In this document: positions 36,727 through 64,000 of the stretch, one piece after another
Layout: each line of letters starts with the position of its first letter
Numbering within the stretch: the stretch's first letter is position 1
Virus record (IMG/VR): IMGVR_UViG_3300027721_000010
Coordinates: 31,003 to 95,002 of that record
Source: a virus
Taxonomy: Duplodnaviria; Heunggongvirae; Uroviricota; Caudoviricetes
Length of the DNA stretch: 64,000 bases
Direction: 5' to 3' (one strand)
The notes under the pieces: model-generated
Told to the model about the DNA's origin: nothing
Seen by the model: only the letters and a program-made list of their open reading frames with translations
The model's database searches: none
Program-made: the position numbers and the translations under genes

Positions 36727-37455
36727 TCATCTCAAGTTTGGAGCGTTTGGTGCTTGACCATCAACTCCATCACTTGTGATGTCTGTCTTCAACCTGAAGT
36801 AGGTAGCTAATAACTTCTGAGAAGTTAATTCAAGAACTTGCTTTTCTAGGTAGCCAGGAACAGGAGACTCTTTGTCAAGAGGGTTCTTGCACAGTTCTTC
36901 TGTTGTGTATTCTGGGGTACCGCAACCACACTCTGGATACATAATGGAATTAGGTACATCCTCCTCGAACAAAGCAACAAGTCTGATGGCTTTCAGGAGG
37001 GGGTTGTTTACGTACAGATATCCATTAGAAATCCAGTAGTATTCTTCCTTCTTGATGATAGGAAGCTTAAGCAAATTAATGTATCTGTTGATGGTTATTT
37101 CTTTTAGTTTCTTTCCTTGTCCACTCATCGCATTAATTGAGTAGACACCCTGTATAACATACTGGTAGTTACCCTCTGTAATGCGTGGAAGTTTGAACCT
37201 GGTTCTAGCCACAGAACAAGGATCTACGTAATCACAACATTCAGAAATAGGAACTTCTACCATCTCTAGACAAGGGATGGTAGTGAATACTGTGTCAGTA
37301 GCCCAAAGCTTCCTCAGATTAGTCTCGCGTTTAATCAGGAGGAAGGCATTGTTCTTAATCTCAGACATGACAGCTCTATCCGTGATCAAGTTGTCTGTGG
37401 AGAGCAACTTGTGCATGGAGCGCACATCTGAAACTAATTTCCTAAAAGTAGCCAT
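36727..37455 (-). CDS. Hypothetical protein of 242 aa.
   Basis: ORF whose stop and start overlap the upstream gene. Confidence 0.5.
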   Translation of the reverse strand: MATFRKLVSDVRSMHKLLSTDNLITDRAVMSEIKNNAFLLIKRETNLRKLWATDTVFTTIPCLEMVEVPISECCDYVDPCSVARTRFKLPRITEGNYQYVIQGVYSINAMSGQGKKLKEITINRYINLLKLPIIKKEEYYWISNGYLYVNNPLLKAIRLVALFEEDVPNSIMYPECGCGTPEYTTEELCKNPLDKESPVPGYLEKQVLELTSQKLLATYFRLKTDITSDGVDGQAPNAPNLR

Positions 37456-48759: not shown

Positions 48760-51356
48760 TATTTCTTAGATTTAGGTGGTTTAGATCTACCCTTTGCGTT
48801 TTCTTTAGCTACAGCTAGGTCATTTTTCTGGTTCTCACGAGCCACCTGAAGTTTCTCTCTTTCAAGAGCTAGCTTCTCAGCAGCCAGTCTATTCTTTGTG
48901 TTGATGTCAGCCATCTTCATCTGGTAGTCCTTTGCAGTTCTGTCTCTTTCTGCACTTATCTTACTGATTTCCAGCACATCAGGAGTTCCAGACTCATCAA
49001 CATCAGCCAGTCCCATACCCATAGACTTGGACTCTGCAGCAATTAGAGCAATCTCTTTTTTATTGATACGGTCCAGCTCATTCTGATAGTTCTCATTAGC
49101 TATGTCCTGTTCTTTCTGCACTTGAGCTTGTTGCATCTGAGCTTGAGCAATTTGACCTTGTTGTTCAATTTGTTGCTGCTGCATCTGCATTTTCTGCTCT
49201 TCCATTTTCTGCTGTCTGTCACGCAAATCCTTGAACACCTTCTTCATTTGTCTCATTGACTTGGTGCTGTACAGCTCAATTACATCATACAGAGATCCAC
49301 CATTCTGCATCAAAGGTTGAGCCAATTGACGCAACTCGTTGAACATCTGTGTATCCTCAGGACGATTTGTCAAGAACACCTTCAGGTCACGGAACTTTAA
49401 GTCAGACCCGTTAACAGAAACAAAAGCAGACTCACCCTCATTAGTAATATAACTAAGCGTAGACTGAGGCTTCTTGCTTTCTACATACAGGGCAGCATCA
49501 ATGATGGCTTGGTAGAGTTGGCCCATTACATATTCGTGTGCTATAAACAGGGGTTCTGTTTGAGCATAAGACTGTTGTACAGCTGTGTTTACACCTGTAG
49601 CAGATTCGCTAGCTGTAATAGATCCCATACGTTGTCTACTCATTCCTACGAGTTCCCAACATTCGCTCTTAAGCTGTTGGGCCAGTGTGTAACGAGATTG
49701 TATCTCTTGTGTACGTGTGAGGTCAATGTCTCTAAACTGGTTGAAGCTAGAGGGACTCTTCAGGTTCTCAGGGCTGTCATCAATAAAGACAACACCTCTG
49801 TTTCTTGCCTCCAGTTCCCAGATGTCTAGGGCATCTTGAGCATCACCATCCTTAGGAACGGGGATGTGTCTGATGGATGTCAGGTACACCTTACCCACTT
49901 CCTTCTCTAACAGTTTGTAGAGCTGGTTCATACACACGTTGTACAGCACCTGGAAAGGCTTCATCAAATCTACAAGACTCTTAGCCTCTGTGTTCTTCAC
50001 CTCAAAGGTGATACCAACAATAGGGCAATAGTTAAGAAGTTTGAACGGTTTAACGTGATAGATATCTGGACCTATCTTGGTTCCCTGATACCACTGGTTA
50101 ATCCATCCCCACTCCAAACTTTGTTGTGTAGGAATGCTACCACTCTTATAGTTTTCATCTACTAGAACAGACTGTTCATTACCAAGCTCGTCTATATAGA
50201 TGAGTTTACCTATCTTCTTCTTACTTAACCAATAACCTCTAACGACAACATATTTGTATCCAAATGAAGACACATTTGATGTGAGTCCCAAAAAGTCTTT
50301 CAGCCCATCACTATTCTCCTTCATCTCGCTTTCAATAATCATACGAGTTTGGAGAACAAGCGGGTCAAATGTATCATATGTCACTGAGTCAATACCAGGA
50401 ACCACGTTGGGGTTTCCAAGATTGGACTCACGTACGTTAATTAATCCATAGTCTTGAAGTGAGCTCCTGAGGTGGTCAATCTCTTCTTTTGTGAGATCAG
50501 GAATGCTTTCAATGATTTCCGAAAGCTCCATAACCTGAACTGTACCAGCAGCATACGCACCTTGTGCTCTACCTGTAGGGTCAGAAATATACTTTCTGTC
50601 AGGAGTGGTGAGGAACCATGTGTTCTTGGGGTTAGCCACCTCAATGTTGAATCCCAGCTTAGAGTTGTCCTCATAGATGTGGTAGAACTCTCGTCCAGAA
50701 ATAAGCATATCTCTAAAGGCATCTTCTGATTTCTCCTTCAGATTAAACTCAGCCTTTTGACATGTCAGCACATGATTGGCCCACTTCTCAGCTACAGATG
50801 TGTAACTGTCCAGGACATCCTGCACATCTTCCATTGTCATTTGTTGCACCTCTTCCTCAGAAAGCTCTTCACCATTCATGGCAGCATTTGCCAAGATTTG
50901 TTGTCTAGCTTTTCCTAAAACATATTCTTGAAGAATCTGCGTCTTAAATTCTAACTCTTCAGATTTGCTATCATCATCAAATGCTTTCACCCTGAATGTG
51001 TCAGGGCGTTTACTAATCTCACCAACCAGTTCATTAACAGGAGTGGTGATGATTGAGTACATCTTTACATAGGCTGGCAATTGCAGATCTGCTGTAAGGA
51101 CATCTGTAAATGAACGCACCTGAGGTTCCTGATAGAAATCTTCCATCCTCAGGATACCTTTCATTAGGTCGTAGTTTTTGACAAATGTGTCTCTGTTCTT
51201 TACAAACTCAGCATAGGCCTTGTTTGCAAAGTAGTCCATTGTGTTTTTGATCCAGCTCTCATCTTGCTTCTCCTTGTCAGTCTTGAACTGGTCAGGAAAG
51301 ATGTTAAGATAGGCATACCTAATGGTAGCATCTTTCGTATATCTAATAATTGCCAT
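48759..51356 (-). CDS. Candidate portal protein of 865 aa, with a C-terminal coiled-coil and a Lys-rich tail.
   Basis: It lies immediately downstream of TerL with a TAATG overlap, and its size suggests a portal. This is a synteny-based inference. Confidence 0.45.
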   Translation of the reverse strand: MAIIRYTKDATIRYAYLNIFPDQFKTDKEKQDESWIKNTMDYFANKAYAEFVKNRDTFVKNYDLMKGILRMEDFYQEPQVRSFTDVLTADLQLPAYVKMYSIITTPVNELVGEISKRPDTFRVKAFDDDSKSEELEFKTQILQEYVLGKARQQILANAAMNGEELSEEEVQQMTMEDVQDVLDSYTSVAEKWANHVLTCQKAEFNLKEKSEDAFRDMLISGREFYHIYEDNSKLGFNIEVANPKNTWFLTTPDRKYISDPTGRAQGAYAAGTVQVMELSEIIESIPDLTKEEIDHLRSSLQDYGLINVRESNLGNPNVVPGIDSVTYDTFDPLVLQTRMIIESEMKENSDGLKDFLGLTSNVSSFGYKYVVVRGYWLSKKKIGKLIYIDELGNEQSVLVDENYKSGSIPTQQSLEWGWINQWYQGTKIGPDIYHVKPFKLLNYCPIVGITFEVKNTEAKSLVDLMKPFQVLYNVCMNQLYKLLEKEVGKVYLTSIRHIPVPKDGDAQDALDIWELEARNRGVVFIDDSPENLKSPSSFNQFRDIDLTRTQEIQSRYTLAQQLKSECWELVGMSRQRMGSITASESATGVNTAVQQSYAQTEPLFIAHEYVMGQLYQAIIDAALYVESKKPQSTLSYITNEGESAFVSVNGSDLKFRDLKVFLTNRPEDTQMFNELRQLAQPLMQNGGSLYDVIELYSTKSMRQMKKVFKDLRDRQQKMEEQKMQMQQQQIEQQGQIAQAQMQQAQVQKEQDIANENYQNELDRINKKEIALIAAESKSMGMGLADVDESGTPDVLEISKISAERDRTAKDYQMKMADINTKNRLAAEKLALEREKLQVARENQKNDLAVAKENAKGRSKPPKSKK

Positions 51357-53380
51357 TATGTAAACAATTTACTTTTTTTCCTTGGGAATAGTCCTCTTGA
51401 TTCTGTAAATAGCTGGTTTTTCTTGTTTGGTCTAAAGAATGCTTTCAGTCTGTCATCTCCTGATCCACCCACCTTTCCAAGTATGGGGTCCATCTTAAGA
51501 GCCTGTGCAATAGCTAGTTCTGCTGCTACGATACGGTCAAAGTTACCCTGATCGTTATATTGGATGATTTCCTCCAACAGAACAGGATCAAATATCTTTG
51601 ACACACCCGTCACCTCTTTGATGATATCACCATCCTCGTTCTTTTCCTGATATACAACAGCCTCCATATACTTCTTCAGACAGTTGTGCAGATAGTCTCT
51701 TATCTTATCTGCTGAGCGGTGCACCCCGTACTCACGCTTTACAGTGGTACCAGGCACCACCTCTTTCAACCATTCAGGTTGTTTCTCAAGGTAGTGTGCA
51801 TCTCCTTTAGCTTTCATATATTCTATGAAGGAGATGTCATCATTTTCACAGAGCGTACGTGCATTATAGTATTTGATAAGAAGTCTAGCCTGTTCTTCCC
51901 AGGTTTCTTTCTTATCAGGTCTTGCACAATACGAAGCTACGAACATATCTTGGTATTTCTCACCAGTTATGTCGTGCATTCTCTTATAAATATATACAGA
52001 ACCCAAAGATGTAGAATAGGCAGCTTGTCCTTGTCTATAAGGGTCAACTCCTGCTACATAGAGTCCGTACGGTGGGTTTTCTAAAGGAAACTCATATACC
52101 ACTACAGGAGCATCCTTCAGATCCGTATTCTTTAGGGGGAAGTTAGTGATGGGTTGTTTGTCTGTAAACTCATGACTAATCTTCTCTCCATCATGGAACA
52201 GAATTACAGGTGTACCTGTACGTTCCTGATTAATCAGCCTAGCTTTCTGTCGCTTAGCTGCTTCTATGTCAAATATGTTTGTGTCCTCATTCAGGAAGAT
52301 GTCATCCACTTCCATGGGATAGTACATCTTCTCTTTCAGATAGGCCACTCTATCTCCAGCCTTTTTCAGGCGTTCTAGATTAGATTCTGTAATTTGTTTA
52401 GCCTTCTCCTCATTACTCACCAACATCCTAACCTCATGAATATCACTTCCTTCAGGCTCCCCTAGAAACGCACCCAACGTACTTTCTTCCTTAGCCTCCA
52501 TTCGATACTTATGCGAAATAAACAGGCCATGAATACGTTTCTCATCTTTTTCATTCTGGTAGGTTAAGAAGTTGAAGTTATCTACATCAAACATCAGAGA
52601 CTTAGCATCCATGAATCGCTTCATGTCACCACCAGTACCTGTAAGAATGGGAGAACAACCCCATCCATAAGGTGTGGTGAAACCAGGCACAGCTGCCTGG
52701 AAACCTCTAAGGAAATTCCCTTTACCAATCTCATCAATAATTAGTTTACGTGGTTTAGTACCTGCAATAGCCTCTTCATTGTTACCCTCATCTAGGTTAC
52801 GAATGAGTATCTGAGAGAACGGTATACGCTCTCCTGATTTGGTCTTAATACCTAGGGTGACTTGGTTTTTCCAGTTGTCCTCAACTCTCTGCCATCTCCA
52901 TGCTTCAGGTAGGAAGTTGAGGCCCTTGTCCAGCTTGTCTGTGATCAGCTTTATATCGGGGGCATTCAACCCAGCGATCACATTCTGGGAATTCTCATCA
53001 AATGTAGCGCCCCACCCTATGTAAGAAGCCTCTAAAACAGACTTGGCAAAACGTCGTATTCCTAGTATTACCAAGCCCTTTTTTTCTTGTTGTGCTCTGT
53101 CTATCTCATTTGTCACTATCCACTCATTGTCACGTAGGAGAGGATTGGCATATTTCTGGGAGATTCTTCCTCTCTCATCTATCACATCCACCTCTGTGTG
53201 CCACACGTTCAGGTGCCAGTAAAGGAATGGGTTGATGTACACCCCATTCATTGAACACCCGTTTAGACATATTTCTCTATGAAAGTCAAAAAATGGCTTA
53301 TACTCTGCAGACTCACGGTCAGGCAGACGTCCCTGGTTAATGAGCCAGTCTTTGTAATCTATGCTTTGTATGCCATTCAT
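51356..53380 (-). CDS. terL: Terminase large subunit of 674 aa.
   Basis: A Walker A-like motif LVILGIRRFAKS, a Walker B motif KLIIDEIG, and a nuclease-domain Asp motif YVAGVDPY in the C-terminal half. Confidence 0.65.
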   Translation of the reverse strand: MNGIQSIDYKDWLINQGRLPDRESAEYKPFFDFHREICLNGCSMNGVYINPFLYWHLNVWHTEVDVIDERGRISQKYANPLLRDNEWIVTNEIDRAQQEKKGLVILGIRRFAKSVLEASYIGWGATFDENSQNVIAGLNAPDIKLITDKLDKGLNFLPEAWRWQRVEDNWKNQVTLGIKTKSGERIPFSQILIRNLDEGNNEEAIAGTKPRKLIIDEIGKGNFLRGFQAAVPGFTTPYGWGCSPILTGTGGDMKRFMDAKSLMFDVDNFNFLTYQNEKDEKRIHGLFISHKYRMEAKEESTLGAFLGEPEGSDIHEVRMLVSNEEKAKQITESNLERLKKAGDRVAYLKEKMYYPMEVDDIFLNEDTNIFDIEAAKRQKARLINQERTGTPVILFHDGEKISHEFTDKQPITNFPLKNTDLKDAPVVVYEFPLENPPYGLYVAGVDPYRQGQAAYSTSLGSVYIYKRMHDITGEKYQDMFVASYCARPDKKETWEEQARLLIKYYNARTLCENDDISFIEYMKAKGDAHYLEKQPEWLKEVVPGTTVKREYGVHRSADKIRDYLHNCLKKYMEAVVYQEKNEDGDIIKEVTGVSKIFDPVLLEEIIQYNDQGNFDRIVAAELAIAQALKMDPILGKVGGSGDDRLKAFFRPNKKNQLFTESRGLFPRKKSKLFT

Positions 53381-53715
53381 TATCGTCTGCTCCTGAGGAA
53401 GTCTTCAGCCATAGAGCTTAACTCTCCATTACCTCTCACTTCCACCTTAGCTTCTTCTTTCTCACGCAGTTTCTCCACAACCTCCAGAAGAGCAAGGTAA
53501 TTCTTCATAGTCTCTTGGATGAACTTACCCTGTGCCTCAATAGAAGCAATCACCATAGGCATCATACCTCCTTTGGCTGTAGGTTTCCATTCAATCCTGT
53601 CTTTTAGTTCGTGAAGAGGGTTTGCATCCACATATGCTTTCCAGCTTTTCAACTGTTCTTCAGCCCAGTCAAGCTCAGCATTTATATATGTAGTTTTTTT
53701 AATAGTCTTCGCCAT
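53380..53715 (-). CDS. Small protein of 111 aa immediately upstream of terL and overlapping it. It is a candidate small terminase or DNA-packaging accessory protein.
   Basis: Position only. Confidence 0.3.
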   Translation of the reverse strand: MAKTIKKTTYINAELDWAEEQLKSWKAYVDANPLHELKDRIEWKPTAKGGMMPMVIASIEAQGKFIQETMKNYLALLEVVEKLREKEEAKVEVRGNGELSSMAEDFLRSRR

Positions 53716-53980
53716 CTTGCTCTTTTAAAATGTTCTCCAGATTCATGCCATCCTTTATAATCTGGTCAAGTTCGCTCTCATCTGTATGGGGTACATCCAT
53801 ATCAAGCTCAGCCTTATACTTCTCAAGAGCAAACAATATCTCTTTATCAGTGAGTCCCCACACATCCCCATACCCATCAAGTGCAGTGGCAATGTGTCTA
53901 CCCATGTTATAGTTTGGATAGCTTATGTGCAACTGCTGGAGGAGTGCAAGCACTCGATAGTAATCATTGGGTTTTCCCAT
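53699..53980 (-). CDS. Hypothetical protein of 93 aa.
   Basis: ORF. Confidence 0.4.
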   Translation of the reverse strand: MGKPNDYYRVLALLQQLHISYPNYNMGRHIATALDGYGDVWGLTDKEILFALEKYKAELDMDVPHTDESELDQIIKDGMNLENILKEQDGEDY

Positions 53981-53989
53981 ATCTACAAT

Positions 53990-54169
53990 TTAGGCTATAA
54001 TTCCAGCCGAACTTGCAGACAACTTGCTTAATCCAGGCGTAATCACGTCTTTCAAAAGCTTAGCAATCTGTTCGTTAGCTAGAGTTTTAACATCTTCAGA
54101 TACTCCTGGTGTAGCCACCAAGGCTCCCAGCTTTTCAATAACAATCCATGCTTCTACTACAGGGTTCAT
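53990..54169 (-). CDS. Small protein of 59 aa (MNPVVEAWIVIEKLGALVATPGVSEDVKTLANEQIAKLLKDVITPGLSKLSASSAGIIA). It falls below the ORF-track threshold, and its ATG overlaps the stop of the upstream gene (ATGA).
   Basis: Hand translation. It fills the 185-nt gap and shows a translational-coupling overlap. Confidence 0.35.
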   Translation of the reverse strand: MNPVVEAWIVIEKLGALVATPGVSEDVKTLANEQIAKLLKDVITPGLSKLSASSAGIIA

Positions 54170-54417
54170 ATTAATTGGTTTAAATCTTCGTCATCAAGTT
54201 TTCTAGAGGGATCAATCTCTATCTCTACATCAAAATCCTCTTTGTCTCCCTTTGTATAATACTCCTCTTTAATAGATATTCCTATGTTATCTTGGAAATC
54301 GTCAGGTATGCCTATAATATCCACGTAATCAGCACCTTTGTTCCAGGCATCTGTCAGCACCTCAATGAATAACTTCAGAGGTATCTTTTTAAGGGTGACT
54401 TCTTGTCTATTTTCCAT
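54166..54417 (-). CDS. Acidic hypothetical protein of 83 aa.
   Basis: ORF. Confidence 0.4.
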   Translation of the reverse strand: MENRQEVTLKKIPLKLFIEVLTDAWNKGADYVDIIGIPDDFQDNIGISIKEEYYTKGDKEDFDVEIEIDPSRKLDDEDLNQLI

Positions 54418-54703
54418 CTTTTTTCATTTGCTCTTCTTGTTCTTGCGTAACCACTGCCAGCCATTTTTCTAATGGACAGGCACATGAAAGACATTTGGTT
54501 TTGGCAGACAGGGTGCACCCACAATGGGTACAATGAGCATCAAGACGGATGGTTTTATAGTTCTTTCTGTTAGCAGAGTGGTATTCACATCCCTTGCAGA
54601 TGTTTATCCTTTCCCTACTCGTCTCGTTTATCGCTGTCTTTAGTTTCTCTGGGGGCAGTAGGTTGTTCCTCCAACCCTCGTAAATCTGAGACACTAGTTT
54701 CAT
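54407..54703 (-). CDS. Cys-rich zinc-ribbon protein of 98 aa (CKGCEY…CTHCGC…CLSCAC).
   Basis: ORF with four Cys pairs. It overlaps the upstream HU-like ORF by 89 nt, so the start or frame is uncertain. Confidence 0.4.
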   Translation of the reverse strand: MKLVSQIYEGWRNNLLPPEKLKTAINETSRERINICKGCEYHSANRKNYKTIRLDAHCTHCGCTLSAKTKCLSCACPLEKWLAVVTQEQEEQMKKDGK

Positions 54704-54995
54704 ATATCTTTGGTTTTAAGTCTCTTATCCCGTCCAGAGCTATTTGAAGCTTCAATGCTGCCGACTTCCTTTTGGCTTCTGGCAGCGTTTCGTCATTTGC
54801 CCATTTCTCAAAAAGCGCCTTCTGACTCAGAAACTTCTCCATCGTCTTGTGCGCCTTTTTCTCGTTGAAAAAGAACTTCCCAAACCCACTGATTTCCACA
54901 CTCTTATTCTGTGTCAACGCCTCGTTAGCGCTTTGGAACTGGTGGTTAATAATGGTCTCCAGCGTCTTCTCACTCATCCTCACCTTGACCGCCAT
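54615..54995 (-). CDS. HU/IHF-family (DNABII)-like DNA-binding protein. The start is taken at the internal Met (MAVKVRMSEKTLETIINHQFQSANEALTQNKSVEISGFGKF…); the track ORF extends to 55079.
   Basis: The N-terminal helices and the ISGFGKF turn match the N-terminal half of HU, but the C-terminal arm is atypical. Confidence 0.4.
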   Translation of the reverse strand: MAVKVRMSEKTLETIINHQFQSANEALTQNKSVEISGFGKFFFNEKKAHKTMEKFLSQKALFEKWANDETLPEAKRKSAALKLQIALDGIRDLKPKIYETSVSDLRGLEEQPTAPRETKDSDKRDE

Positions 54996-55035
54996 CTTTC
55001 TGATGATGTAGTCCTTGATGGAGAGGCTCACGGGC

Positions 55036-55386
55036 TTATCCGTGAACAAGTCTGATTTCAAGGGTGACATCATGTTCAAAGTTTAACAAGATTTGTGGAT
55101 TCACCTTCACCTTTGTCCCATCCTTCACCAGCACCCCTACCTTCTTCAGCCTAGAAATGATGTTATTTATGGAGGCATTGGTGGTGCCATACTTTTCACA
55201 GAAATCCTTACGTATGTTAGCGTAAGAAATATTACCCCTTACAGCAGCAAAAGCCAGGAGCTGTATTTCTCTCTGTGTCAGCTTCAGATCGTTTACAGCA
55301 GACAGGATGGTATAATACCTCTCAGCCAGTAGGGTGTTATCCTTCTCAGCTTTCCTTAGTTTCTGTAATACGATGGTGGTTTTCAT
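55036..55386 (-). CDS. Putative HTH DNA-binding regulator of 116 aa (…LTQREIQLLAFAA…), an early gene.
   Basis: A LuxR or sigma-region-4-like HTH signature, and a host-type promoter immediately upstream. Confidence 0.35.
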   Translation of the reverse strand: MKTTIVLQKLRKAEKDNTLLAERYYTILSAVNDLKLTQREIQLLAFAAVRGNISYANIRKDFCEKYGTTNASINNIISRLKKVGVLVKDGTKVKVNPQILLNFEHDVTLEIRLVHG

Positions 55387-55400
55387 ATATTTAGTTAGTA

Positions 55401-55440
55401 CAAAGATAGGAAGTATTTATAACATAGTCAAATACAATCT
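55401..55440 (-). promoter_or_regulatory. Bacteroidetes-type sigma-A promoter on the minus strand: the -33 element TTTG (rc of 55429-55432), a 20-nt spacer, and the -7 element TATCTTTG (rc of 55401-55408). It lies about 15 nt upstream of the ATG of the regulator gene.
   Basis: Matches the TTTG…TAnnTTTG consensus with the canonical spacing. Confidence 0.35.
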
Positions 55441-55599
55441 TTTACACTATTGCTATATTATGTCCTTTTTCCCTACCAGATACACCATTCCCATTCTTAA
55501 ATCCTTAGTTATGGAGATCTCCATTCACCACATTCAACCACCTATTGACTATCTATCCCTAGGAGGTATAGAGTCTAATAACCCACCCTCCACCCCAAA

Positions 55600-55800
55600 G
55601 TTACAACACATCCCCCATATATCCAACAAATTTTTTTCCGTAAACCCATACCCTTACAAAATACCCCCTAGGGTAAACCTCTAGGTTGACTATCCCCCCT
55701 AGTTTGTTCCACGTGAAAAAACCCCCCTATCCGTGAAGGGGGAGGTTACTCCACACCAAGGACCCGGGGGCAGGATGCGCGGTGGGAGCCACCCCCCGTG
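55600..55800. promoter_or_regulatory. C-rich, GC-rich divergent intergenic region carrying three direct CCCCCCTA(G) repeats about 30 bp apart (at 55664, 55694 and 55722). It also holds a CCCCCT/AGGGGG hairpin (55722..55743) and a GC-rich block (55755..55800). It is a candidate operator, iteron or origin region.
   Basis: Read from the sequence. Its composition is atypical for this AT-rich genome. Confidence 0.4.
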
Positions 55801-55844
55801 CTTCGTTAACAAGGAGTCACCTTGTAAAAAACTGTCGAATAATT

Positions 55845-56264
55845 ATGGCACAAGAACTGCGTATCAAATCAGGCGTATGGTCAGAGAAAGGCAACTTCAC
55901 TGCAAAAACTGCGTACGGTAAAACTTTCTTCATCCACAAGAACCAGATGGCAGAGTTGGGCTACGAGCCTAAGGCTGAGGTTAAGTTCCCATTCTATGCA
56001 GTGGTTGACACCACTATGATTGGTCAGCTTGACAAGAATGGTGACCCTCTGATGGGCGAAGATGGTAAGCCCGTGCAGGTTGCTCGTGAGAGTGCTCTGT
56101 CCGTGTTCAGCACACTCGAAGAGTTGCAGGCTTGCGCCATCGAAGAGCGTACTATTGGTGCAGACATCGAAATTGCTGTTCAGCAGCACGTTCGTAGCAA
56201 GGTTAGCACCAGCGGTTTGAGTGAGCAAGCTGTTAACAACATCCTTGCCAGCTCATTAGTGTAA
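55845..56264 (+). CDS. First plus-strand gene, 139 aa, function unknown (MAQELRIKSGVW…). It is followed by a strong terminator. The track ORF begins at 55782 inside the GC-rich region, and the ATG at 55845 is preferred.
   Basis: ORF, an in-frame ATG after the GC island, and the downstream terminator. Confidence 0.45.
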   Translation: MAQELRIKSGVWSEKGNFTAKTAYGKTFFIHKNQMAELGYEPKAEVKFPFYAVVDTTMIGQLDKNGDPLMGEDGKPVQVARESALSVFSTLEELQACAIEERTIGADIEIAVQQHVRSKVSTSGLSEQAVNNILASSLV

Positions 56265-56273
56265 GATTAATCG

Positions 56274-56310
56274 AAAGTCTCCTCAATCAGGGGAGACTTT
56301 CTTTTATTCC
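56274..56310 (+). terminator. Rho-independent terminator (GTCTCC-TCAATCAG-GGGAGAC then TTTCTTTTATT).
   Basis: Stem-loop with a T-run, immediately after the stop at 56264. Confidence 0.6.
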
Positions 56311-56848
56311 TTATATATATGGGTGGGGAAACATGAAATGTTCCTTGGGTGGGACATATTAAGATGCATAACGCATTGATTCTCTGTGAGTTAGAGAGAG
56401 GCTGTGTGACCCATTACCACTTTTTAGGGGTAAAACCAGACATTGCACAATTATAAGCTTACAAGAATAAATATAGCATTAATGCACCACAAACAGCTTC
56501 CCAAGGGCTGACAGATGTGTAACACAATAAGTATAACAGCTACATTAATAAAAGTTATACATCTGAGTGCAGAGGGATATGTATCTTATGACCTGAAAGG
56601 GTGCTGCATAAAAAGTGGGTAGTAAAGGGTTAAGTCCCAGGATGTCCCAATCATAAGATCTAGCCACCATCTGGATAATCTCTGAAAAGGGTAAAGATGA
56701 TTGGCTTAGCCGAGACCTGAGCATGTCTATAAACTGCTTATTTATGTATCAGGTGTTTATCTGTTCGTACATCTTCACAGATCAGAGGCTTTGTGGATAG
56801 AGGCACAAAATCCATATTTTTTTACAAACCCTTAATAATCAATTAACT

Positions 56849-56953
56849 ATGTTAACATTATTCCTTATGTTCGGTCTTTATTTAGCCTATAGAGACATGG
56901 AACAATATGAGATTAGGATGGAGAACGATCTATATGAGCGTTCTGCTGAATAA
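56849..56953 (+). CDS. Possible 34-aa hydrophobic peptide (MLTLFLMFGLYLAYRDMEQYEIRMENDLYERSAE), preceded by a variant of the conserved leader motif.
   Basis: Hand translation, and the upstream motif taataatcaattaactATG. Confidence 0.2.
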   Translation: MLTLFLMFGLYLAYRDMEQYEIRMENDLYERSAE

Positions 56954-56983
56954 CTATTTCATAATCATTAAAAATCAAAAAAG

Positions 56984-57232
56984 ATGAAAAGCAATCTCTC
57001 ATGCATTATTTCTTTGAGCATTACAGGTGTTATATCTCTGTGCTCGTTATATTTGTCCTTCAGAGGTGTTGAAACTCTGGATAGTATTAATAACAGGATG
57101 GACAGATCTAATGTGGAATACCAATTTGTGGTGACAGATAGTACAATTACTGTCTGGGATGACAATAGGTGGGTTGGTACAGTGGCTCTAGAGGGTCAGT
57201 TGGACAGCTTGATTACATCTGACAACCAGTAA
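56984..57232 (+). CDS. Small protein of 82 aa with an N-terminal hydrophobic or signal segment.
   Basis: ORF from the track. Confidence 0.35.
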   Translation: MKSNLSCIISLSITGVISLCSLYLSFRGVETLDSINNRMDRSNVEYQFVVTDSTITVWDDNRWVGTVALEGQLDSLITSDNQ

Positions 57233-57244
57233 TGTTTATGTGCT

Positions 57245-57318
57245 GATCCTGTAGCTCAGTTGAATAGAGCAACAGCCTTCTAAGCTGTGGGCCATTGGTT
57301 TGAATCCAATCAGGATCA
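57245..57318 (+). tRNA. tRNA-Arg, anticodon TCT (decodes AGA), 74 nt with no encoded CCA.
   Basis: Manual fold. Acceptor GATCCTG/CAGGATC (7 bp); D-arm GCTC-AGTTGAATA-GAGC; anticodon stem ACAGC/GCTGT with loop CTTCTAA; variable loop GGGCC; T-arm ATTGG-TTTGAAT-CCAAT; discriminator A. Confidence 0.85.
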
Positions 57319-57340
57319 CTTAATTTTTCATTTTATATTT

Positions 57341-57376
57341 CGGGCCTGTGTTTCCACACTGGGGCCCTTTTTATTA
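57341..57376 (+). terminator. Hairpin (GGGCC…GGCCC) followed by TTTTTATT, downstream of the tRNA.
   Basis: Read from the sequence. Confidence 0.4.
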
Positions 57377-57402
57377 TTTAAACAATTTAAAATCAATTAG
57401 TT

Positions 57403-57570
57403 ATGGTATTAAAATGGATCTATTATGGTGTGTCTATGATATTAGTTACACCATATCTATTATGGAATGCTTTTGTTAGCCTCATTATGTGGGATGCTAA
57501 GTATTGGGACAATGCCTGTTATGGTGTTTATCAAGGATTGGATGATGATCATTTCAACTCTAAAAAATAA
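57403..57570 (+). CDS. 55-aa hydrophobic small protein, possibly with 2 TM segments (MVLKWIYYGVSMILVTPYLLWNAFVSLIMWDAKYW…). It could be holin-like.
   Basis: Hand translation. It is preceded by the conserved leader aatcaattagttATG. Confidence 0.3.
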   Translation: MVLKWIYYGVSMILVTPYLLWNAFVSLIMWDAKYWDNACYGVYQGLDDDHFNSKK

Positions 57571-57576
57571 ATTCTA

Positions 57577-57693
57577 ATGAAAAAATTACTCCTTCTAGCA
57601 GTTATTGCTGTATTTATGCTTCAGAGCTGTGCCACAAATGGATATGGCTGCAGGGGCAGAGGCAAGATTATTACACGTGTTAAACAATTCTAA
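57577..57693 (+). CDS. 38-aa putative lipoprotein (MKKLLLLAVIAVFMLQSCATNGYGCRGRGKIITRVKQF), a candidate o-spanin-like outer-membrane lipoprotein.
   Basis: Hand translation, showing a signal peptide plus a lipobox-like LQSC. Confidence 0.3.
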   Translation: MKKLLLLAVIAVFMLQSCATNGYGCRGRGKIITRVKQF

Positions 57694-57704
57694 ATCAATT
57701 AGTT

Positions 57705-57851
57705 ATGAAAATCATCCTTTTACCCCCTCGAGAATTCATTAATTTCAAAACCTTAGCCAACCGTATTCAACTAATTTTTGAGTATGAGGTCTTGCATGGC
57801 GTGTTCCATGTAAAGGCTGATGCTCTACGTCTTGACGAGTTGGGTTACTAA
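57705..57851 (+). CDS. 48-aa small protein (MKIILLPPREFINFKTLANRIQLIFEYEVLHGVFHVKADALRLDELGY).
   Basis: Hand translation. It is preceded by the conserved leader, and the stop of the upstream ORF lies within the motif. Confidence 0.3.
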   Translation: MKIILLPPREFINFKTLANRIQLIFEYEVLHGVFHVKADALRLDELGY

Positions 57852-58124
57852 GGATGAGAGAACAGCCCTGAAATATGGGCTGTTCCTTTTTTATGTTTGA
57901 AAAAGTGTTGTAAATCACACTTTTACGTACGTAAAACTGTATCCATACCCAAAAACACCCATAATGAGTCATATAATGCACTTTATGGCTCATATTGGTC
58001 CTTTATAAGTCACATTATCGCTCATGTGTGAGCTATAAATGGCCAACTCAGGAAGTAAATGCATGAATATTTTGTAAAGATTCATGCAAACAGTAATGCA
58101 TAACACATTATAAATCAGTTAGTT

Positions 58125-58274
58125 ATGAACACACCAGCCATTATTATTTCCTTCACTATCAGCTTTCTTATAGCAGTGCTGTGGGTGAAAGGGATAGATA
58201 AAATGAAACGAGACCACCCTGATTACAAGGGTGAAGACTTTTTAAATCACGATGATAAAAACACATCCTCATGA
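58125..58274 (+). CDS. 49-aa single-TM small protein (MNTPAIIISFTISFLIAVLWVKG… with a charged C-terminus). It could be holin-like. Its stop overlaps the next start (ATGA).
   Basis: Hand translation. It is preceded by the conserved leader variant taaatcagttagttATG. Confidence 0.3.
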   Translation: MNTPAIIISFTISFLIAVLWVKGIDKMKRDHPDYKGEDFLNHDDKNTSS

Positions 58275-58540
58275 ACAAAGTAGTAATAATTGTAGGCATA
58301 GTGCTCACCATGTCTGTTCTTCTTTATCAGGTGTCCACCAAGGATAGGAAGATTAAGGCTCTAAACCAGCAGATTGTAGAGCTAGAGCAAAAGGTAAAGG
58401 TGATTGACTCATTAGATGCTGAGCTATTTCCTTTGGAGATAGAGCTTAACAGGTATGAGATGGCATTTAAAATATTTGCCAAACGTCATCCCGTTTATGC
58501 AGAGATATATGCCTCTATTATATCAAACGAAACAGAATAA
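58271..58540 (+). CDS. 89-aa protein with an N-terminal TM segment and a coiled coil, giving i-spanin-like or type II membrane protein architecture.
   Basis: ORF. Its composition is a TM segment followed by heptad-like repeats. Confidence 0.4.
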   Translation: MNKVVIIVGIVLTMSVLLYQVSTKDRKIKALNQQIVELEQKVKVIDSLDAELFPLEIELNRYEMAFKIFAKRHPVYAEIYASIISNETE

Positions 58541-58551
58541 AACAATTAAAT

Positions 58552-58770
58552 ATGGTAGGAACAATCTTTAGAAAGCTAGTGGAAAGACACGAAATGGGAA
58601 CAGCAGGCAGTAGTATGTATCAGAGCTGGAAGGTCATTAGTGACCTAGGTAATGACATATACGCCTGTGTACGCGTAGATAATACACAAGATCCTATGGG
58701 TGCAGCTAGTCCACAGAAACGTACATTCAAAGGAGTTGATATTCAGAAATATCTAAAAAATAAACAATAA
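58552..58770 (+). CDS. Hypothetical protein of 72 aa.
   Basis: ORF. Confidence 0.4.
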   Translation: MVGTIFRKLVERHEMGTAGSSMYQSWKVISDLGNDIYACVRVDNTQDPMGAASPQKRTFKGVDIQKYLKNKQ

Positions 58771-59354
58771 TGTTTATAACCGTAGAGCTCGTATTTAAGA
58801 GCCACATGCCTAAACAATTAGAGCCTGGATTATGGTTCATCACCAAGATTAATCCTGGCACTAGAAAAGAATATTCGGAAGTGTGGGAGCTTGACAAACA
58901 TCCTACAGAAAGCCTAGAAGAATTCATCTCCAAAAATGGTGCGCCTGTTGAGCCCTATCTGATGTATGATGAACAGATATTAGCAGATCCAGATGAAATT
59001 GGATGGTGGGACGCAGGACATGAGGTGGAGGTACTTAGAGATATCACTCTCAAAGACATCAACCATATTCTAGAAGAATGGGATGGTTATGTTGATGTAG
59101 AGATTGATGAAGACTCATTTGATGAGGAAGATGAGATTCGTCCTATTGCTCACATGGACAAGGTGGTTCTTTGCATCCCTGGATTGTATGATGAGGAAGA
59201 GGAAGATGATGATGAAGGGCCTTGGTTGTGTGGTAATTGTAATGGTTCAGGATATGGTGCTACACCAGATGTAGCTTGTCCTGTATGCCATGGAGAGGGT
59301 GAAATCTATCTTAGAGACGATGATGATGTTGATGAACACACTGGAGAAGATTAA
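58770..59354 (+). CDS. Highly acidic 194-aa protein with a C-terminal DnaJ-type zinc finger (CGNCNGSG…CPVCHGEG, nt 59229..59300) and poly-Asp/Glu tracts. It is a candidate DNA-mimic, anti-defence or host-takeover factor.
   Basis: Two CxxCxGxG repeats and the acidic composition. Confidence 0.45.
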   Translation: MFITVELVFKSHMPKQLEPGLWFITKINPGTRKEYSEVWELDKHPTESLEEFISKNGAPVEPYLMYDEQILADPDEIGWWDAGHEVEVLRDITLKDINHILEEWDGYVDVEIDEDSFDEEDEIRPIAHMDKVVLCIPGLYDEEEEDDDEGPWLCGNCNGSGYGATPDVACPVCHGEGEIYLRDDDDVDEHTGED

Positions 59355-59373
59355 ATAATCAAAATTAAACAAC

Positions 59374-59577
59374 ATGACATTAGAGTACACATCTATTGAA
59401 AGGCTTCAAGAGATTGAGGCTGAAAGAGCACAAACAGAATCAGATCCCAATTTTCATGTATGGATGCAAGAACTTAAAGTGGGCATCCTATGCAAAAAGA
59501 ATGATGGGGTTGACAGAGCACGTAAAATAATGGCAGATTGGAATCAATCACCTTTAAACAAAACTTTATGGGAGTAG
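59374..59577 (+). CDS. Hypothetical protein of 67 aa.
   Basis: ORF. Confidence 0.4.
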   Translation: MTLEYTSIERLQEIEAERAQTESDPNFHVWMQELKVGILCKKNDGVDRARKIMADWNQSPLNKTLWE

Positions 59578-60140
59578 ACATCGCTGGGATCAATCCTCAA
59601 ATAGTTGGGGAGCGTCCACAAGAGCCAAACTGGGAAACAGCCACAGAGTATGAAAGAGATATGTACATAAACTCTATGGATCTGTTCTACAGTAACAATC
59701 CTGGTGTGTATTTCAGGAGCAATTGGTGGGGTTGGAGACCGATTCATGCAATAGCTGATATGGCCATCAAGGTGGCACAACTGGGATATGACACTAGCCT
59801 ATGGGGAGAGAATAGTGGTGCAGGGCTTGAAACACAGGAAGAATGTAATCATCTAGCTGATGCTATAGAGCTGTTCATGATGCTCAATAATGCAAATATG
59901 CATGACATGGATGACAGGTTCTATCTGTGTTTGGGTAGTTGGGTTACATCAAATGGTCGTTTTCTATCAGAAGATGTAATAGATAAGCTCAATGAAGACT
60001 ATCCAATAGGCACTATTCGCTATCAAGGGGTTGTGGGAGAAGATGGTGTGCTAGCATTTCCATCTCACAGTGCACCTCTGTATCATGTACATAATTTTGT
60101 CACCTTCCTTCGCAAATGTGGAGGATTTCAAATCTTTTAA
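59568..60140 (+). CDS. Hypothetical protein of about 190 aa. The start is taken at the ATG at 59568, which overlaps the upstream stop (ATGGGAGTAG). The track ORF starts at 59538.
   Basis: ORF with a translational-coupling overlap. Confidence 0.4.
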   Translation: MGVDIAGINPQIVGERPQEPNWETATEYERDMYINSMDLFYSNNPGVYFRSNWWGWRPIHAIADMAIKVAQLGYDTSLWGENSGAGLETQEECNHLADAIELFMMLNNANMHDMDDRFYLCLGSWVTSNGRFLSEDVIDKLNEDYPIGTIRYQGVVGEDGVLAFPSHSAPLYHVHNFVTFLRKCGGFQIF

Positions 60141-60141
60141 C

Positions 60142-60702
60142 ATGACAACGTACACCCAATCTCTATTAAAAACTGCAGAAAGAACACAGAAGGCTGCTGT
60201 GCGAGAATTCCTATTCTCATTCTTTCAACAAGCACAGCTCAATAAGATTATTGGGCTTGCTGGTCCAAACATCCAAGACTATCTCAACTTCTTGAAATCC
60301 AAGGGGTTCAATGAGTTTGAGATATATGAAATGGACAAAATCACAGCCATACATCAACTCACACATCTGAATGGTAGGGTGGCTCTTAAACTAGGAGACA
60401 TCCTTAATGCAAATCCTAATGAACCCAATGTGCTCTATGATCTAGACTATTGTGTCACCGTTAGACATATGAAGGAACACATAGCTAGGTTTAAGAACAA
60501 CTTCATTATGACATTTGCCAGACGCGTTCCTTTGACAGAAACTATAGGAACCTTCTTCACCGTCAGAGATGAGAAAGTGGTCAAGACATATGTGTATGAT
60601 AACCCTGTCAATCATACAGTGTATGAAACTGATAAGGGAAAATACATATATGCTGCCTACAAAGACACATCACCCATGTGTTGCTTCGCTAAAATCGCTT
60701 AA
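60142..60702 (+). CDS. Hypothetical protein of about 186 aa, possibly Rossmann or SAM-methyltransferase-like (IIGLAGPNIQ … EIYEMD … VLYDLDYC). The track ORF starts at 60070, and the ATG at 60142 is preferred.
   Basis: Weak resemblance to class-I MTase motifs I, II and IV. This is speculative. Confidence 0.35.
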   Translation: MTTYTQSLLKTAERTQKAAVREFLFSFFQQAQLNKIIGLAGPNIQDYLNFLKSKGFNEFEIYEMDKITAIHQLTHLNGRVALKLGDILNANPNEPNVLYDLDYCVTVRHMKEHIARFKNNFIMTFARRVPLTETIGTFFTVRDEKVVKTYVYDNPVNHTVYETDKGKYIYAAYKDTSPMCCFAKIA

Positions 60703-60727
60703 TTAACTCACAATTAAATTCAACAAC

Positions 60728-61048
60728 ATGACAAATCCTTATTTCTACAGCTGGAAAGACATCAAAGACATGAAAGAGCTCATCCGTACAGGAGAGCCCA
60801 TTTTGCGCATTGCTCGCAGAGAGTATCAGCGTTTTGGAGCATCAAGTGCTTCTGCATTTGCTATCAAATTGTATAAGCTTGCCAAGACTACCACTAAGAT
60901 TAGAGAGTGGGAAGGATCAAAGAAAGAACGTAAAGCAAAAGATCAAGTGGCTGCACCAAAAGCGCTCACTGTTCCTGAAGGCACTACTTTTGAGGGTACA
61001 CCTAAGAGGGTAGAACTGCACACTGATCATTTCCGTATTTATTTCTAA
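60728..61048 (+). CDS. Hypothetical protein of 106 aa.
   Basis: ORF. Confidence 0.4.
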   Translation: MTNPYFYSWKDIKDMKELIRTGEPILRIARREYQRFGASSASAFAIKLYKLAKTTTKIREWEGSKKERKAKDQVAAPKALTVPEGTTFEGTPKRVELHTDHFRIYF

Positions 61049-61067
61049 ACATATAAATACTCATCCC

Positions 61068-61277
61068 ATGCCTACACTCGTCTATCGCTCCTGTTGGAGC
61101 AAAATCACACCTTTAGTTTACTCAGATGACTCTAATGATGATGCAGTTAATCGTTTGATTGACACCATCTTCAGAGCCAAACGAACTAACAGACTCGTGC
61201 TTGATAACAACAAAATGTATTACAAGCCTAGTAACCAGTACAAAAGATTTGTTGTTCGTATGCGTAAGATTAGGTAA
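61068..61277 (+). CDS. Hypothetical protein of 69 aa.
   Basis: ORF. Confidence 0.35.
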   Translation: MPTLVYRSCWSKITPLVYSDDSNDDAVNRLIDTIFRAKRTNRLVLDNNKMYYKPSNQYKRFVVRMRKIR

Positions 61278-61336
61278 ATTTGAATCACAGTTCCCACTCT
61301 TGTAACAGAGGGTGGGAACATTTATAATTAAATAAC

Positions 61337-61633
61337 ATGGCAACCGCTAAAAAAACTACAAAGAAAGCATTTGAAAAAAAAGCTGCAAGTTCACAAAAAC
61401 TTGGACATTTCAACATTACAGTGTACAAAGATGAAACTGCAGCTGTTGATGTAGACTGTCCTACAAGTGAATTAATTGCAGCACTTGCATCTGTCATTGC
61501 ATCAGAGGAAGGACCAGGTCAATTGTTAAGATCAGCACTTGCTCTTGCAGCATTTGGTCTTGAAGAAGAATCTAAGAAAAAGAAGAAAAAGCCTGCTGTC
61601 AAAAAGAAAGCTGCTCCTAAAAAGAAGAAATGA
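61337..61633 (+). CDS. Histone-H1-like Lys/Ala-rich DNA-binding protein of 98 aa (N-terminus MATAKKTTKK, C-terminus KKKKKKPAVKKKAAPKKKK).
   Basis: Composition. The gene lies immediately upstream of the DNA polymerase and overlaps it (ATGA). Confidence 0.45.
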   Translation: MATAKKTTKKAFEKKAASSQKLGHFNITVYKDETAAVDVDCPTSELIAALASVIASEEGPGQLLRSALALAAFGLEEESKKKKKKPAVKKKAAPKKKK

Positions 61634-63588
61634 TGAATGTACTCATATATGACATTGAGACCTTAAAAGAATACTTTCTAGTGGTGGTATTGGTTCCTCA
61701 AGAACCGTATAGGGTATTTAAAGTTAATCAAGAAGAGAACAGTCTGGGTGCGTTTGTTAAGTTCACCGAGCAGTATAAAGATTATTATTGGGTGGGCTAC
61801 AATAATCTTCGGTTTGACTCTCAAGTGGTGGAATGGGTACTGCGTAACAATGAATATTGGCATGAGCTTTCCAACTTGGAAATAACAGCCAAAATACACC
61901 AGAAGGCAGCTGATGTCATACATGATGCAAATTATGATGTGTTTCCTGAATTCAGGGAGCATGACCTAAGCCTCAAACAGATTGATCTCTTCAAGATTCA
62001 CCACTTTGACAACAAGAATAGACGCGTTAGTCTAAAGAGACTAGAGTTTGAAATGGACCTCGAGAACATTGAGGAGATGCCCATAGATCATAACAAGGAA
62101 GGGATGACCAAAGAGGATATCATTGAAACCACTGGTTATTGTTTGAATGATGTGTGGGCCACTTACCAGTTCTACCTCATCACTATTGGGCAGACAGATC
62201 ATCCTTTGTACAAGGGTGACAACAGAATACAGCTCAGAGAAGATATACGAGAAGAGTTTGGTATTCCGTGTCTAAACTATTCTGACAGTAAGATTGGTGA
62301 TGAAATGATTAAGAAGTATTACTGCCAAGAAAAGAATATAGACTATCGTGATCTACCAAAGAGTGGTAAGTTTGAGAAGAAAACGTACATAAAGAACTGT
62401 ATTGCAGAGTATGTACAGTTTCAGACTCCCGAACTGCAGCAATTCCTAGCACGTATCAGAAAGATGAGCTTAACTATGAAGGATGACTTCAAAGAGGAGC
62501 TACATTTCTATGGGAACGTGTATTCCTTTATGAAGGGTGGGCTGCACACAGAGAATAAACCCAAGATATTTGAAGCTGATGAGGAGTATGAGATTATTGA
62601 TTGGGATGTAAGCAGTTATTATCCTGCCATCATCATCAATAATGGACGCTATCCTCGCCACTTGGGTAAAGAGTTCCTTCAGGGCTATAAGACAATGTTT
62701 GAGAAACGATTGGAACTCAAGCCTTTAGCTAAGAAGGACAAGAAAATTAAGGGTATTGTGGGAGCCCTTAAGCTTGCTGTAAACTCTGTTTATGGCAAAT
62801 CCAGTGATGTACAGAACTGGATCTATGATAGACAACTCACCATGTTCACCACTATTACTGGCGAGCTTAGCCTGATGATGCTCATCGAGGCTTATGAGCT
62901 AGCTGGTATCAATGTCATCTCTGCTAACACCGATGGTGTCACTATTAGAATCAAGAAGGATCTGATAGATAAAATGCATGAGGTGAATAAGTGGTGGTCA
63001 GAGCTCACACAATATGAGCTGGAAAGAGCTGACTATCAAAAGATTATATTTTCCACGGTAAATGACTATCTTGCGATAAAAACAGATGGAGAAGTCAAGA
63101 AGAAAGGCGATTTCCTCACAGATTTCGAGCTTCATAAGAACAAGTCAGCGCGTATTGTCCCGATTGCTTTGGAACAATATTTTGTTAGTAATATACCTGT
63201 TACTGATACTATTCGCGGTCATAATAACATCTTTGACTTCTGCTTAAGGCAGAAAGCATCCAAAGATTTCCATTATGAAGGAATAGATAGATCCACAGGT
63301 GATAAGACTGTATACAATAAGCTGATTCGTTATTACATCTCCAATAGTGGAGAGAAGCTCCTGAAAATCAAGAATGAGGACTCTAATAGTGGTGCTGCAG
63401 CTGTTTCCCAAGTGGAAGCTGGTGAGTGGCTGGCCACTGTATGCAACAAACTTGACAAAAAACATCCTCTGGACAACATCAACTATCTGTATTACATCGA
63501 TAGGGCTGAGAGACTAATCAGCAAGATTGAGTCTGAAGGTAAAGCTCGCAGGATAGTCGTAAATCCTAACCAATTAAGTTTATTCTAA
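61630..63588 (+). CDS. polB: Family B DNA polymerase of 652 aa, phi29-like and possibly protein-primed. It has Exo I (YDIET), Exo II (GYNNLRFD), Exo III (YCLNDVWATY), motif A (DVSSYYPAII), motif B (KLAVNSVYGK), a pre-motif-C TTITG, and motif C reading ISANTDGVTI.
   Basis: The motif order and spacing match phi29 DNAP (DVNSLYPAQM, KLMLNSLYGKF, TTITA…YCDTDSIH). Confidence 0.7.
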   Translation: MMNVLIYDIETLKEYFLVVVLVPQEPYRVFKVNQEENSLGAFVKFTEQYKDYYWVGYNNLRFDSQVVEWVLRNNEYWHELSNLEITAKIHQKAADVIHDANYDVFPEFREHDLSLKQIDLFKIHHFDNKNRRVSLKRLEFEMDLENIEEMPIDHNKEGMTKEDIIETTGYCLNDVWATYQFYLITIGQTDHPLYKGDNRIQLREDIREEFGIPCLNYSDSKIGDEMIKKYYCQEKNIDYRDLPKSGKFEKKTYIKNCIAEYVQFQTPELQQFLARIRKMSLTMKDDFKEELHFYGNVYSFMKGGLHTENKPKIFEADEEYEIIDWDVSSYYPAIIINNGRYPRHLGKEFLQGYKTMFEKRLELKPLAKKDKKIKGIVGALKLAVNSVYGKSSDVQNWIYDRQLTMFTTITGELSLMMLIEAYELAGINVISANTDGVTIRIKKDLIDKMHEVNKWWSELTQYELERADYQKIIFSTVNDYLAIKTDGEVKKKGDFLTDFELHKNKSARIVPIALEQYFVSNIPVTDTIRGHNNIFDFCLRQKASKDFHYEGIDRSTGDKTVYNKLIRYYISNSGEKLLKIKNEDSNSGAAAVSQVEAGEWLATVCNKLDKKHPLDNINYLYYIDRAERLISKIESEGKARRIVVNPNQLSLF

Positions 63589-64000
63589 TGGATATCAAAA
63601 AAGGAGACAAGTTTAAGGACTACATAGGTACTCCTTGTTTCATTAGCTACATCAAGGGAGACATCATAAAGCTGTCATTCATAGAAGAGCGTCCACACGT
63701 AGAGGTTTGGGATAAGAAGGAATTCTTAGCTGAGATTAGCAAGAATAGATTCTTTCCTGAACCACGCGTTGTGGTGAATAGAACAAACATCACCACACAT
63801 CTTATTGAATATCAGCTAAATATGGTGGGTAAAACAATAGAAGAAGCTCGTATCATAGATGATTGGTACTATCAATGGACTATGACAACCACGCAGCTTG
63901 AACTATTTAAAGCATATGCAATCCCTCTGCTTCGTAAGGTATTTAAATTCAACAAACGAAAAGCGGAGGACACATTTGGCTGGTTTAATTTCCAGTATGG
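63589..64000 (+). CDS. Partial CDS of at least 137 aa (MDIKKGDKFKDYIGTPCF…) that runs off the window end, function unknown.
   Basis: Open frame from an ATG that overlaps the polymerase stop (TAATG), with no stop within the window. Confidence 0.4.

Follow-up and report, generated by a model that had tools for sequence, protein, structure and literature searches.

The window analysed here, a 64,000-nt stretch of tailed-phage DNA (positions 31,003–95,002 of IMG/VR record IMGVR_UViG_3300027721_000010), encodes close to its downstream end a family B DNA polymerase (PolB) of 652 amino acids (positions 61630–63588, + strand), recognised by PHROG and tblastn matching, profile comparison, an AlphaFold2 (AF2) model and fold matches. 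The enzyme is very probably the replicative, proofreading PolB of a crAss-related tailed phage of about 115 kb, a primer-dependent polymerase of the crAss-like/NTDG group that works without a terminal protein. It is a new, fairly divergent member of a known and very abundant phage polymerase group. An earlier note, made from the letters of the DNA alone, had described a phi29-like polymerase with an anomalous motif C, encoded next to a histone H1-like gene. The open reading frames (ORFs) listed there, motifs A, B and C and the TTITG segment all lie where it placed them, and its assignment to family B, with an Asn where DTD has its first Asp, is confirmed by alignment to KOD and Pyrobaculum PolB.

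Sequence motifs and family membership of the polymerase

The polymerase opens at residue 1 with a 3′–5′ proofreading exonuclease (Exo) domain, whose active-site motifs (61651–62154, + strand) read YDIETL (Exo I, residues 7–12), YNNLRFD (Exo II, residues 57–63) and YCLNDV (Exo III, residues 170–175). The query was aligned by MAFFT with 136 diverse representatives, 29–58% identical to it (n = 137), and the DEDDy motif of family B 3′–5′ exonucleases is conserved in 133–137 of these sequences (D8 and E10 in 133 each, N58 in 134, D63 in 135, Y170 in 137, and D174 in 136). Motif A (DVSSYYPAII, residues 326–335; 62605–62634, + strand) aligns with DFRSLYPSII of KOD and retains D326 in all 137 sequences, Y331 in 135, and P332 in 133. 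Motif B (KLAVNSVYGK, residues 381–390; 62770–62799, + strand), on the second fingers helix, is conserved to a similar extent (K381 and G389 in 137 of 137, N385 in 135). A motif A of the DxxSLYP type, a motif B of the KxxxNSxYG type, and a PolB fold of palm, fingers and thumb together identify the protein as a member of family B. The TTITG sequence forms the Tx2G segment at residues 407–411, and the counterpart of the KxY motif is VNDY (residues 477–480; 63058–63069, + strand), which aligns with KKKY of KOD and whose V477, N478 and Y480 are each at least 90% conserved in the family alignment.

In motif C (ISANTDGVTI, residues 430–439; 62917–62946, + strand), N433 replaces the first Asp of DTD. 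Nucleotides 62926–62937 read AAC ACC GAT GGT and translate as N-T-D-G, with the Asn433 codon AAC at 62926–62928, and the alignments set this asparagine squarely on the first Asp (aNTDG on sDTDG of KOD, ANTDG on GDTDS of Pyrobaculum PolB). Within the 137-sequence alignment N433 and D435 are invariant (137 of 137 each), T434 and G436 are each kept in 135, and NTDG is read in 120 of 120 close relatives of the polymerase. ANTDG is likewise present in crAssphage ZA, crAss002 and Salmonella phage Sasha, in the form (S/Q)ANTDG. Since the NTDG pattern is a family signature, it lies far above chance.

What had been taken for an anomaly of this gene is a hallmark, published as early as 2011 and invariant across its group. 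Kazlauskas and Venclovas (2011, NAR; PMC3201878) described “NTDG” as the hallmark active-site motif of a phage RNA-primed PolB subgroup (“PolIIphages”), and Kazlauskas, Krupovic, Guglielmini, Forterre and Venclovas (2020, NAR; PMC7544198) defined the “crAss-like” PolB group, in which MotifC and KxY are profoundly different. Both divergences are present in the polymerase, NTDG standing for DTD and VNDY for KxY. Enterococcus phage IME-EFm1 (3605–5896 of its locus) carries SNTDA instead of NTDG, and has an N-terminal extension of ~130 amino acids before Exo I.

The earlier note had also pointed to a second KTDG about 55 residues downstream of motif C. Such a sequence exists, at residues 484–487, 51 residues past motif C. 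As an alternative motif C it was rejected: it is weakly kept (K in 51, T in 46, and D in 53 of 137 sequences) and stands just after the KxY counterpart. The possibility that an intact DTD motif C lies elsewhere in the protein does not hold either, NTDG being the sequence that aligns on DTD.

Database comparisons agree with the motif analysis. PHROG 1252 (“DNA polymerase”) matches the polymerase end to end (E = 3e-140). By tblastn, 862 of 50,697 phage records match it, all at below 60% identity, the best places listed lying at 22–34%; identity to polymerases of the isolate and GenBank phage collection is no more than 25–35%. These phages include Sashavirus, Nonagvirus, Seuratvirus, crAssphage ZA, Bacteroides phage crAss002 and uncultured phage cr60_1, together with phages of Acinetobacter, Vibrio, Rheinheimera, Pseudomonas, Rhodobacter, Leuconostoc and Flavobacterium. 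Similarity to the crAssphage-type PolB is significant and spans the full length, as illustrated by crAss002 (E = 2e-50, 98% query coverage, 27% identity), crAssphage ZA (E = 1e-44) and cr60_1 (E = 4e-43). When 1.84 billion representative proteins were scanned exhaustively with HMMER, 4631 clusters matched the polymerase at E ≤ 1e-3, and metagenomic relatives up to ~90% identical are found on contigs of 110–118 kb. In the Flavobacterium phages Fpv2 and FPSV-D13, the homologue occurs in two pieces over ~2.3 kb, with a “hypothetical protein” between the two polymerase coding sequences, which suggests a gene interrupted by an inserted element.

The query therefore has the Exo I–III, DxxSxYP, KxxxNxxYG, Tx2G, (S/Q)ANTDG and VNxY motifs of the crAss-like PolB group, as well as the group's N-terminal Exo start and location within a phage replication module. 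It differs in its upstream neighbour, which is UDG in crAssphage and a Dda-like helicase in crAss002, but a small Lys-rich protein here.

Predicted fold and relation to primer-dependent PolBs

A profile built from 95 family members was compared with PDB sequences and, by hhalign, with phi29 gp2. It matches the archaeal primer-dependent PolBs KOD, 9N, Tgo and Pfu at E ~ 1e-15, and Pol alpha and Pol epsilon come next. These alignments set aNTDG against sDTDG, VNnY against KKKY, and the Tx2G segment against TAWGR. The single sequence, searched against PDB with phmmer, gave a marginal archaeal PolB match only (E = 0.4).

The AF2 model, computed from the alignment, has a mean pLDDT of 96 and a pTM of 0.93, and the palm-domain prediction proposed earlier returned a standard palm. 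In it a strand at residues 320–327 ends at D326, and strands 428–433 and 436–442 form a hairpin with NTDG at the turn; helices 347–367 and 371–391 make up the fingers hairpin, which carries motif B. The top Foldseek matches in PDB are 9N, Pyrobaculum PolB, KOD, Tgo, Pfu, Pol alpha and the ASFV polymerase, with RB69 and Pol II among the other fold matches.

The archaeal and eukaryotic PolBs (KOD, 9N, Tgo, Pfu, Pol alpha, the N-terminal half of Pol epsilon), with RB69 gp43 and E. coli Pol II, thus provide the best profile and fold matches, sharing palm, fingers and thumb with the query and, as seen in KOD, a spacing of ~52–53 residues from motif B to motif C. In the archaeal enzymes, too, DTD is followed by Gly (DTDG). 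Unlike the query, these PolBs contain DTD and KxY, carry an N-terminal domain before Exo, and are 100–500 amino acids longer.

Replication module and priming

The window stops at 64000, 412 nt past the end of the polymerase, and does not reach the genome ends; the downstream genes were examined in relatives, contigs of 110–124 kb being read up to 10 kb from the polymerase gene. A contig of 115.9 kb whose polymerase is 84% identical to the query is collinear with window positions 55039–63991. In this contig, ORFs of no assigned family lie directly downstream of the polymerase. Beyond them, and within 8 kb of it, are encoded a DnaB-like helicase, a helicase of the SF2 type, an annealing protein resembling Sak4, a DNA primase (phrog_12622, E = 7e-35) and a protein that matches UDG faintly. 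Where related viral loci extend 8.5 kb or more downstream, a DnaB homologue is present in 28 of 28 and a primase homologue in 26 of 28.

No terminal-protein gene was found adjoining the polymerase, the upstream gene encoding a Lys-rich protein of 98 amino acids and the downstream genes of the relative encoding helicases and primase. The earlier observation that no terminal protein is evident thus stands, but the puzzle built on it does not, as in syntenic relatives genes for a DnaB-like helicase and a primase lie just past the polymerase, a module that explains initiation without a terminal protein. In the mechanism proposed from these gene contents, the phage primase would lay RNA primers for the polymerase to extend, the phage DnaB-like helicase would unwind the template, and initiation would not require a terminal protein. 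Such a module fits a genome of ~115 kb packaged by a large terminase.

Catalysis and role of the polymerase

In canonical PolBs the second Asp of motif C is the universally matched catalytic residue, as in RB69 (D623), Pol delta (D764), Pol II (D547) and phi29 (D458) (PMC3799440), and the triad of D411, D621 and D623 is described as acting “directly or indirectly” on both the metals and the primer terminus (PMC3792054). The counterpart of RB69 D623 here is D435, which is invariant. The polymerase would be expected to use ordinary two-metal catalysis, with D326 of motif A and D435 of motif C as the putative direct metal ligands, and N433 would replace a residue whose contribution in canonical enzymes is only indirect.

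We infer that the polymerase is catalytically competent, and indeed a working replicase, because Asn433 and the other catalytic motifs are jointly invariant over thousands of sequences and because cultured lytic phages (crAss002, Sasha) carry the enzyme. An equivalent replicase function is further implied in Crassvirales, where crAss-type PolB and PolA are exchanged reciprocally at one and the same locus (PMC11348598).

Several observations weigh against the assignment as a primer-dependent replicase. Pfam-A gave no meaningful match to the polymerase, which shows the divergence of the group from canonical PolB models; very abundant as the group is (4631 representative clusters, 862 phage records), the database misses it. 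No biochemical or structural report was found on any NTDG-group enzyme. The helicase and primase were seen only in relatives, whose polymerases are 55–93% identical to the query, the window itself ending before such genes. A study of the polymerase of Enterococcus phage IME199 (PMC10590003) was considered as possible NTDG-group biochemistry and set aside: its residue numbering does not fit the translated NTDA enzyme of the related-looking phage IME-EFm1, and with terminal inverted repeats reported and phi29 as the best template, the IME199 enzyme appears to be phi29-related.

The role of the invariant motif C asparagine is a long-recognised enzymological question of the whole NTDG group and not of this window. 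The invariant Asn and VNxY might give the group a distinct catalysis, in metal dependence, tolerance of modified nucleotides or primer handling, and the coupled Lys-tailed protein of 98 amino acids might be a DNA-tethering accessory or processivity factor, a combination that we regard as unlikely and neither part of which is specific to the window. Several carriers of the NTDG-group polymerase, Nonagvirus and Seuratvirus for example, have 7-deazaguanine DNA.

A role in repair or translesion synthesis like that of E. coli Pol II, in place of main replicase, is very unlikely. In relatives the gene stands first in a replication module that includes DnaB, primase and helicases, no second polymerase was seen in the window or in the flanks of the relatives examined, and PolA and PolB are interchangeable in Crassvirales (PMC11348598).

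It is highly improbable that the D-to-N change marks a catalytically dead or exonuclease-only homologue, with a host polymerase replicating the phage. Such a reading could draw on the conservation of the first Asp of DTD in canonical enzymes, as part of the “catalytic aspartate triad” (PMC3792054), and on the lack of NTDG-group biochemistry noted above. However, the Asn is itself invariant, and motifs A and B, Tx2G, D435 and Y480 are invariant or nearly so, a pattern of a selected site and not of decay. Cultured lytic phages with replication modules (crAss002, Sasha) carry the same enzyme, and the PolB/PolA exchange at one Crassvirales locus (PMC11348598) also argues for an active replicase.

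Comparison with phi29 and protein-primed PolBs

The enzyme does resemble phi29 polymerase in belonging to family B, in its compactness, in its N-terminal Exo domain, and in its motif order, but the order A, B, Tx2G, C is generic for family B. The one real likeness is an Exo domain starting from residue 1, the extra N-terminal domain found in cellular PolBs being absent, and this feature is common to the aligned crAss-like members. In other respects the two differ: phi29 has the TPR1 and TPR2 insertions, YCDTDS, KxY, a terminal-protein gene adjoining the polymerase, and inverted terminal repeats on a genome of 19 kb. Those of these features that were looked for here, the insertions, YCDTDS, KxY and the neighbouring terminal-protein gene, are all absent.

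The profile and fold comparisons, in which archaeal and eukaryotic primer-dependent PolBs come first, leave phi29 far behind. Its DNA polymerase is absent among the 60 listed matches of the family profile and does not appear in the Foldseek top 50 for the polymerase model, and hhalign of the family profile against phi29 gp2 gave a probability of 4.7% over 72 columns, in the Exo domain only. In neither sequence nor fold is the polymerase closer to protein-primed PolBs than to primer-dependent ones.

There is likewise no room for the insertions that accompany protein priming. Between motifs A and B, no TPR1 is present, D326 and K381 lying 55 residues apart vs. 134 in phi29, and the model shows a two-helix hairpin only. 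No TPR2 is present between motifs B and C, where K381 and N433 are separated by 52 residues vs. 73 in phi29, a spacing as in KOD. With spacings of 55 and 52 residues, TPR1 or TPR2 cannot fit.

The suggestion of a phi29-like enzyme, primed by a terminal protein at inverted terminal repeats and acting through a variant metal site, is thus contradicted by the profile, fold, motif-spacing and gene-neighbour tests and is extremely improbable; protein priming, raised as a possibility, fails on the missing TPR1/TPR2 and on the primase/helicase module of the relatives. The fitting annotation is “DNA polymerase B, crAss-like/NTDG group, primer-dependent”, and neither phi29-like nor protein-primed.

The earlier note had allowed for a sequencing error at codon 433, AAC read in place of GAC. 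Such an error, or one of assembly, is refuted by the presence of NTDG in every close relative and diverse member aligned and in all of 80 independent related IMG/VR viral contigs (polymerase 55–93% identical to the query), of which 41 encode the Asn by AAT, 39 by AAC, and none has GAY. Because NTDG is retained in 80 of 80 contigs with both synonymous Asn codons in use, the Asn is under purifying selection.

The Lys-rich protein encoded upstream

The small gene directly upstream (61337–61633, + strand) encodes the Lys/Ala-rich protein of 98 amino acids, and its stop codon TGA overlaps the start ATG of the polymerase ORF (61630) as ATGA. Lys makes up 21% of the protein, which has Lys-rich N and C tails. 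Its C tail, EESKKKKKKPAVKKKAAPKKKK, is rich in Lys, Ala and Pro and is kept among homologues. Between the Lys-rich tails, which end in KKKAAPKKKK, lies a conserved core of ~55 amino acids (GHFNITVYKD...DVDCP...LASVIAS...GPGQLLR), modelled by AF2 at low confidence (pLDDT 60) as a beta-beta-alpha-alpha core, a beta hairpin with two helices.

Its description as H1-like reflects composition only. The Lys/Ala/Pro-rich tails (KKKAAPKKKK) are shared with histone H1, but the protein lacks the winged-helix globular domain and a Pfam Linker_histone match, and it differs further in its ~55-residue core, its metagenomic-only homologues, and its variable presence among related loci. Searches gave no Pfam family even at E ≤ 1, no PHROG match, and no PDB profile match, histones included. 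Only seven homologues were found among 5.8 billion proteins, all metagenomic and named “hypothetical protein” at most. The protein is not a histone H1 homologue and not a terminal protein; an accessory role in binding DNA non-specifically is probable.

In only 20 of 71 related loci is the polymerase immediately preceded by a small ORF with a Lys/Arg-rich C tail, in most cases overlapping the polymerase start by 4 or 7 nt. Other loci, with polymerases just as similar, have unrelated small ORFs in that place, and the 98-residue gene is therefore a variable accessory gene. Across loci L007–L086 the slot before the polymerase behaves as a variable cassette, holding Lys-tailed proteins of 73–100 amino acids in some loci and, in others, a 53-residue Cys-rich protein (MPDITMCxGxDCPLKExCYRYT...), a “YNYVFHYN” protein of 53–77 amino acids, a protein of 202 amino acids, or nothing. 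The content of the slot differs even between loci with similarly related polymerases.

Phage context and other features of the window

The window derives from a crAss-related phage. Its TerL, portal and major head protein match crAss-type PHROGs, and its TerL is closest to those of Leptolyngbya phage Lbo-JY46 (41%), the Cellulophaga phages phi17:2 and phi4:1, csAssE-Sib, and numerous crAss-like phages. A megablast of window positions 50000–64000 against GenBank phages matched a single element, a tRNA-Arg (anticodon TCT; 57245–57319, + strand), which is ~89% identical to tRNA-Arg of Enterobacter, Kosakonia and Proteus phages.

The coding strand switches at ~55000–58000: as far as ~55 kb the − strand carries structural and packaging genes, and from ~56 kb the + strand carries small genes for early functions and replication; GC skew and AT skew flip sign at the switch. 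PHROG scans of the small ORFs at 58271–61277 and of the giant ORFs yielded nothing informative. The largest of the latter, of 4258 amino acids (8635–21411, − strand), has no PHROG match and contains a single DFDID at residue 3322, which resembles the DxDxD metal site of the crAss-like virion-packaged RNA polymerase. It is flanked by ORFs of 1487, 877, 1144 and 1784 amino acids, some of which match “virion structural protein” PHROGs.

Among the small + strand genes, a very acidic protein of 194 amino acids (58770–59354) has no PHROG match and contains CxxCxGxG...CxxCxGxG (CGNCNGSGYG...CPVCHGEGE), a likeness to the DnaJ-type zinc finger. A homologue of the SbcD/Mre11-type “DNA repair exonuclease” (37455–38705, − strand; phrog_704, E = 1e-47) lies among the structural and tail ORFs.

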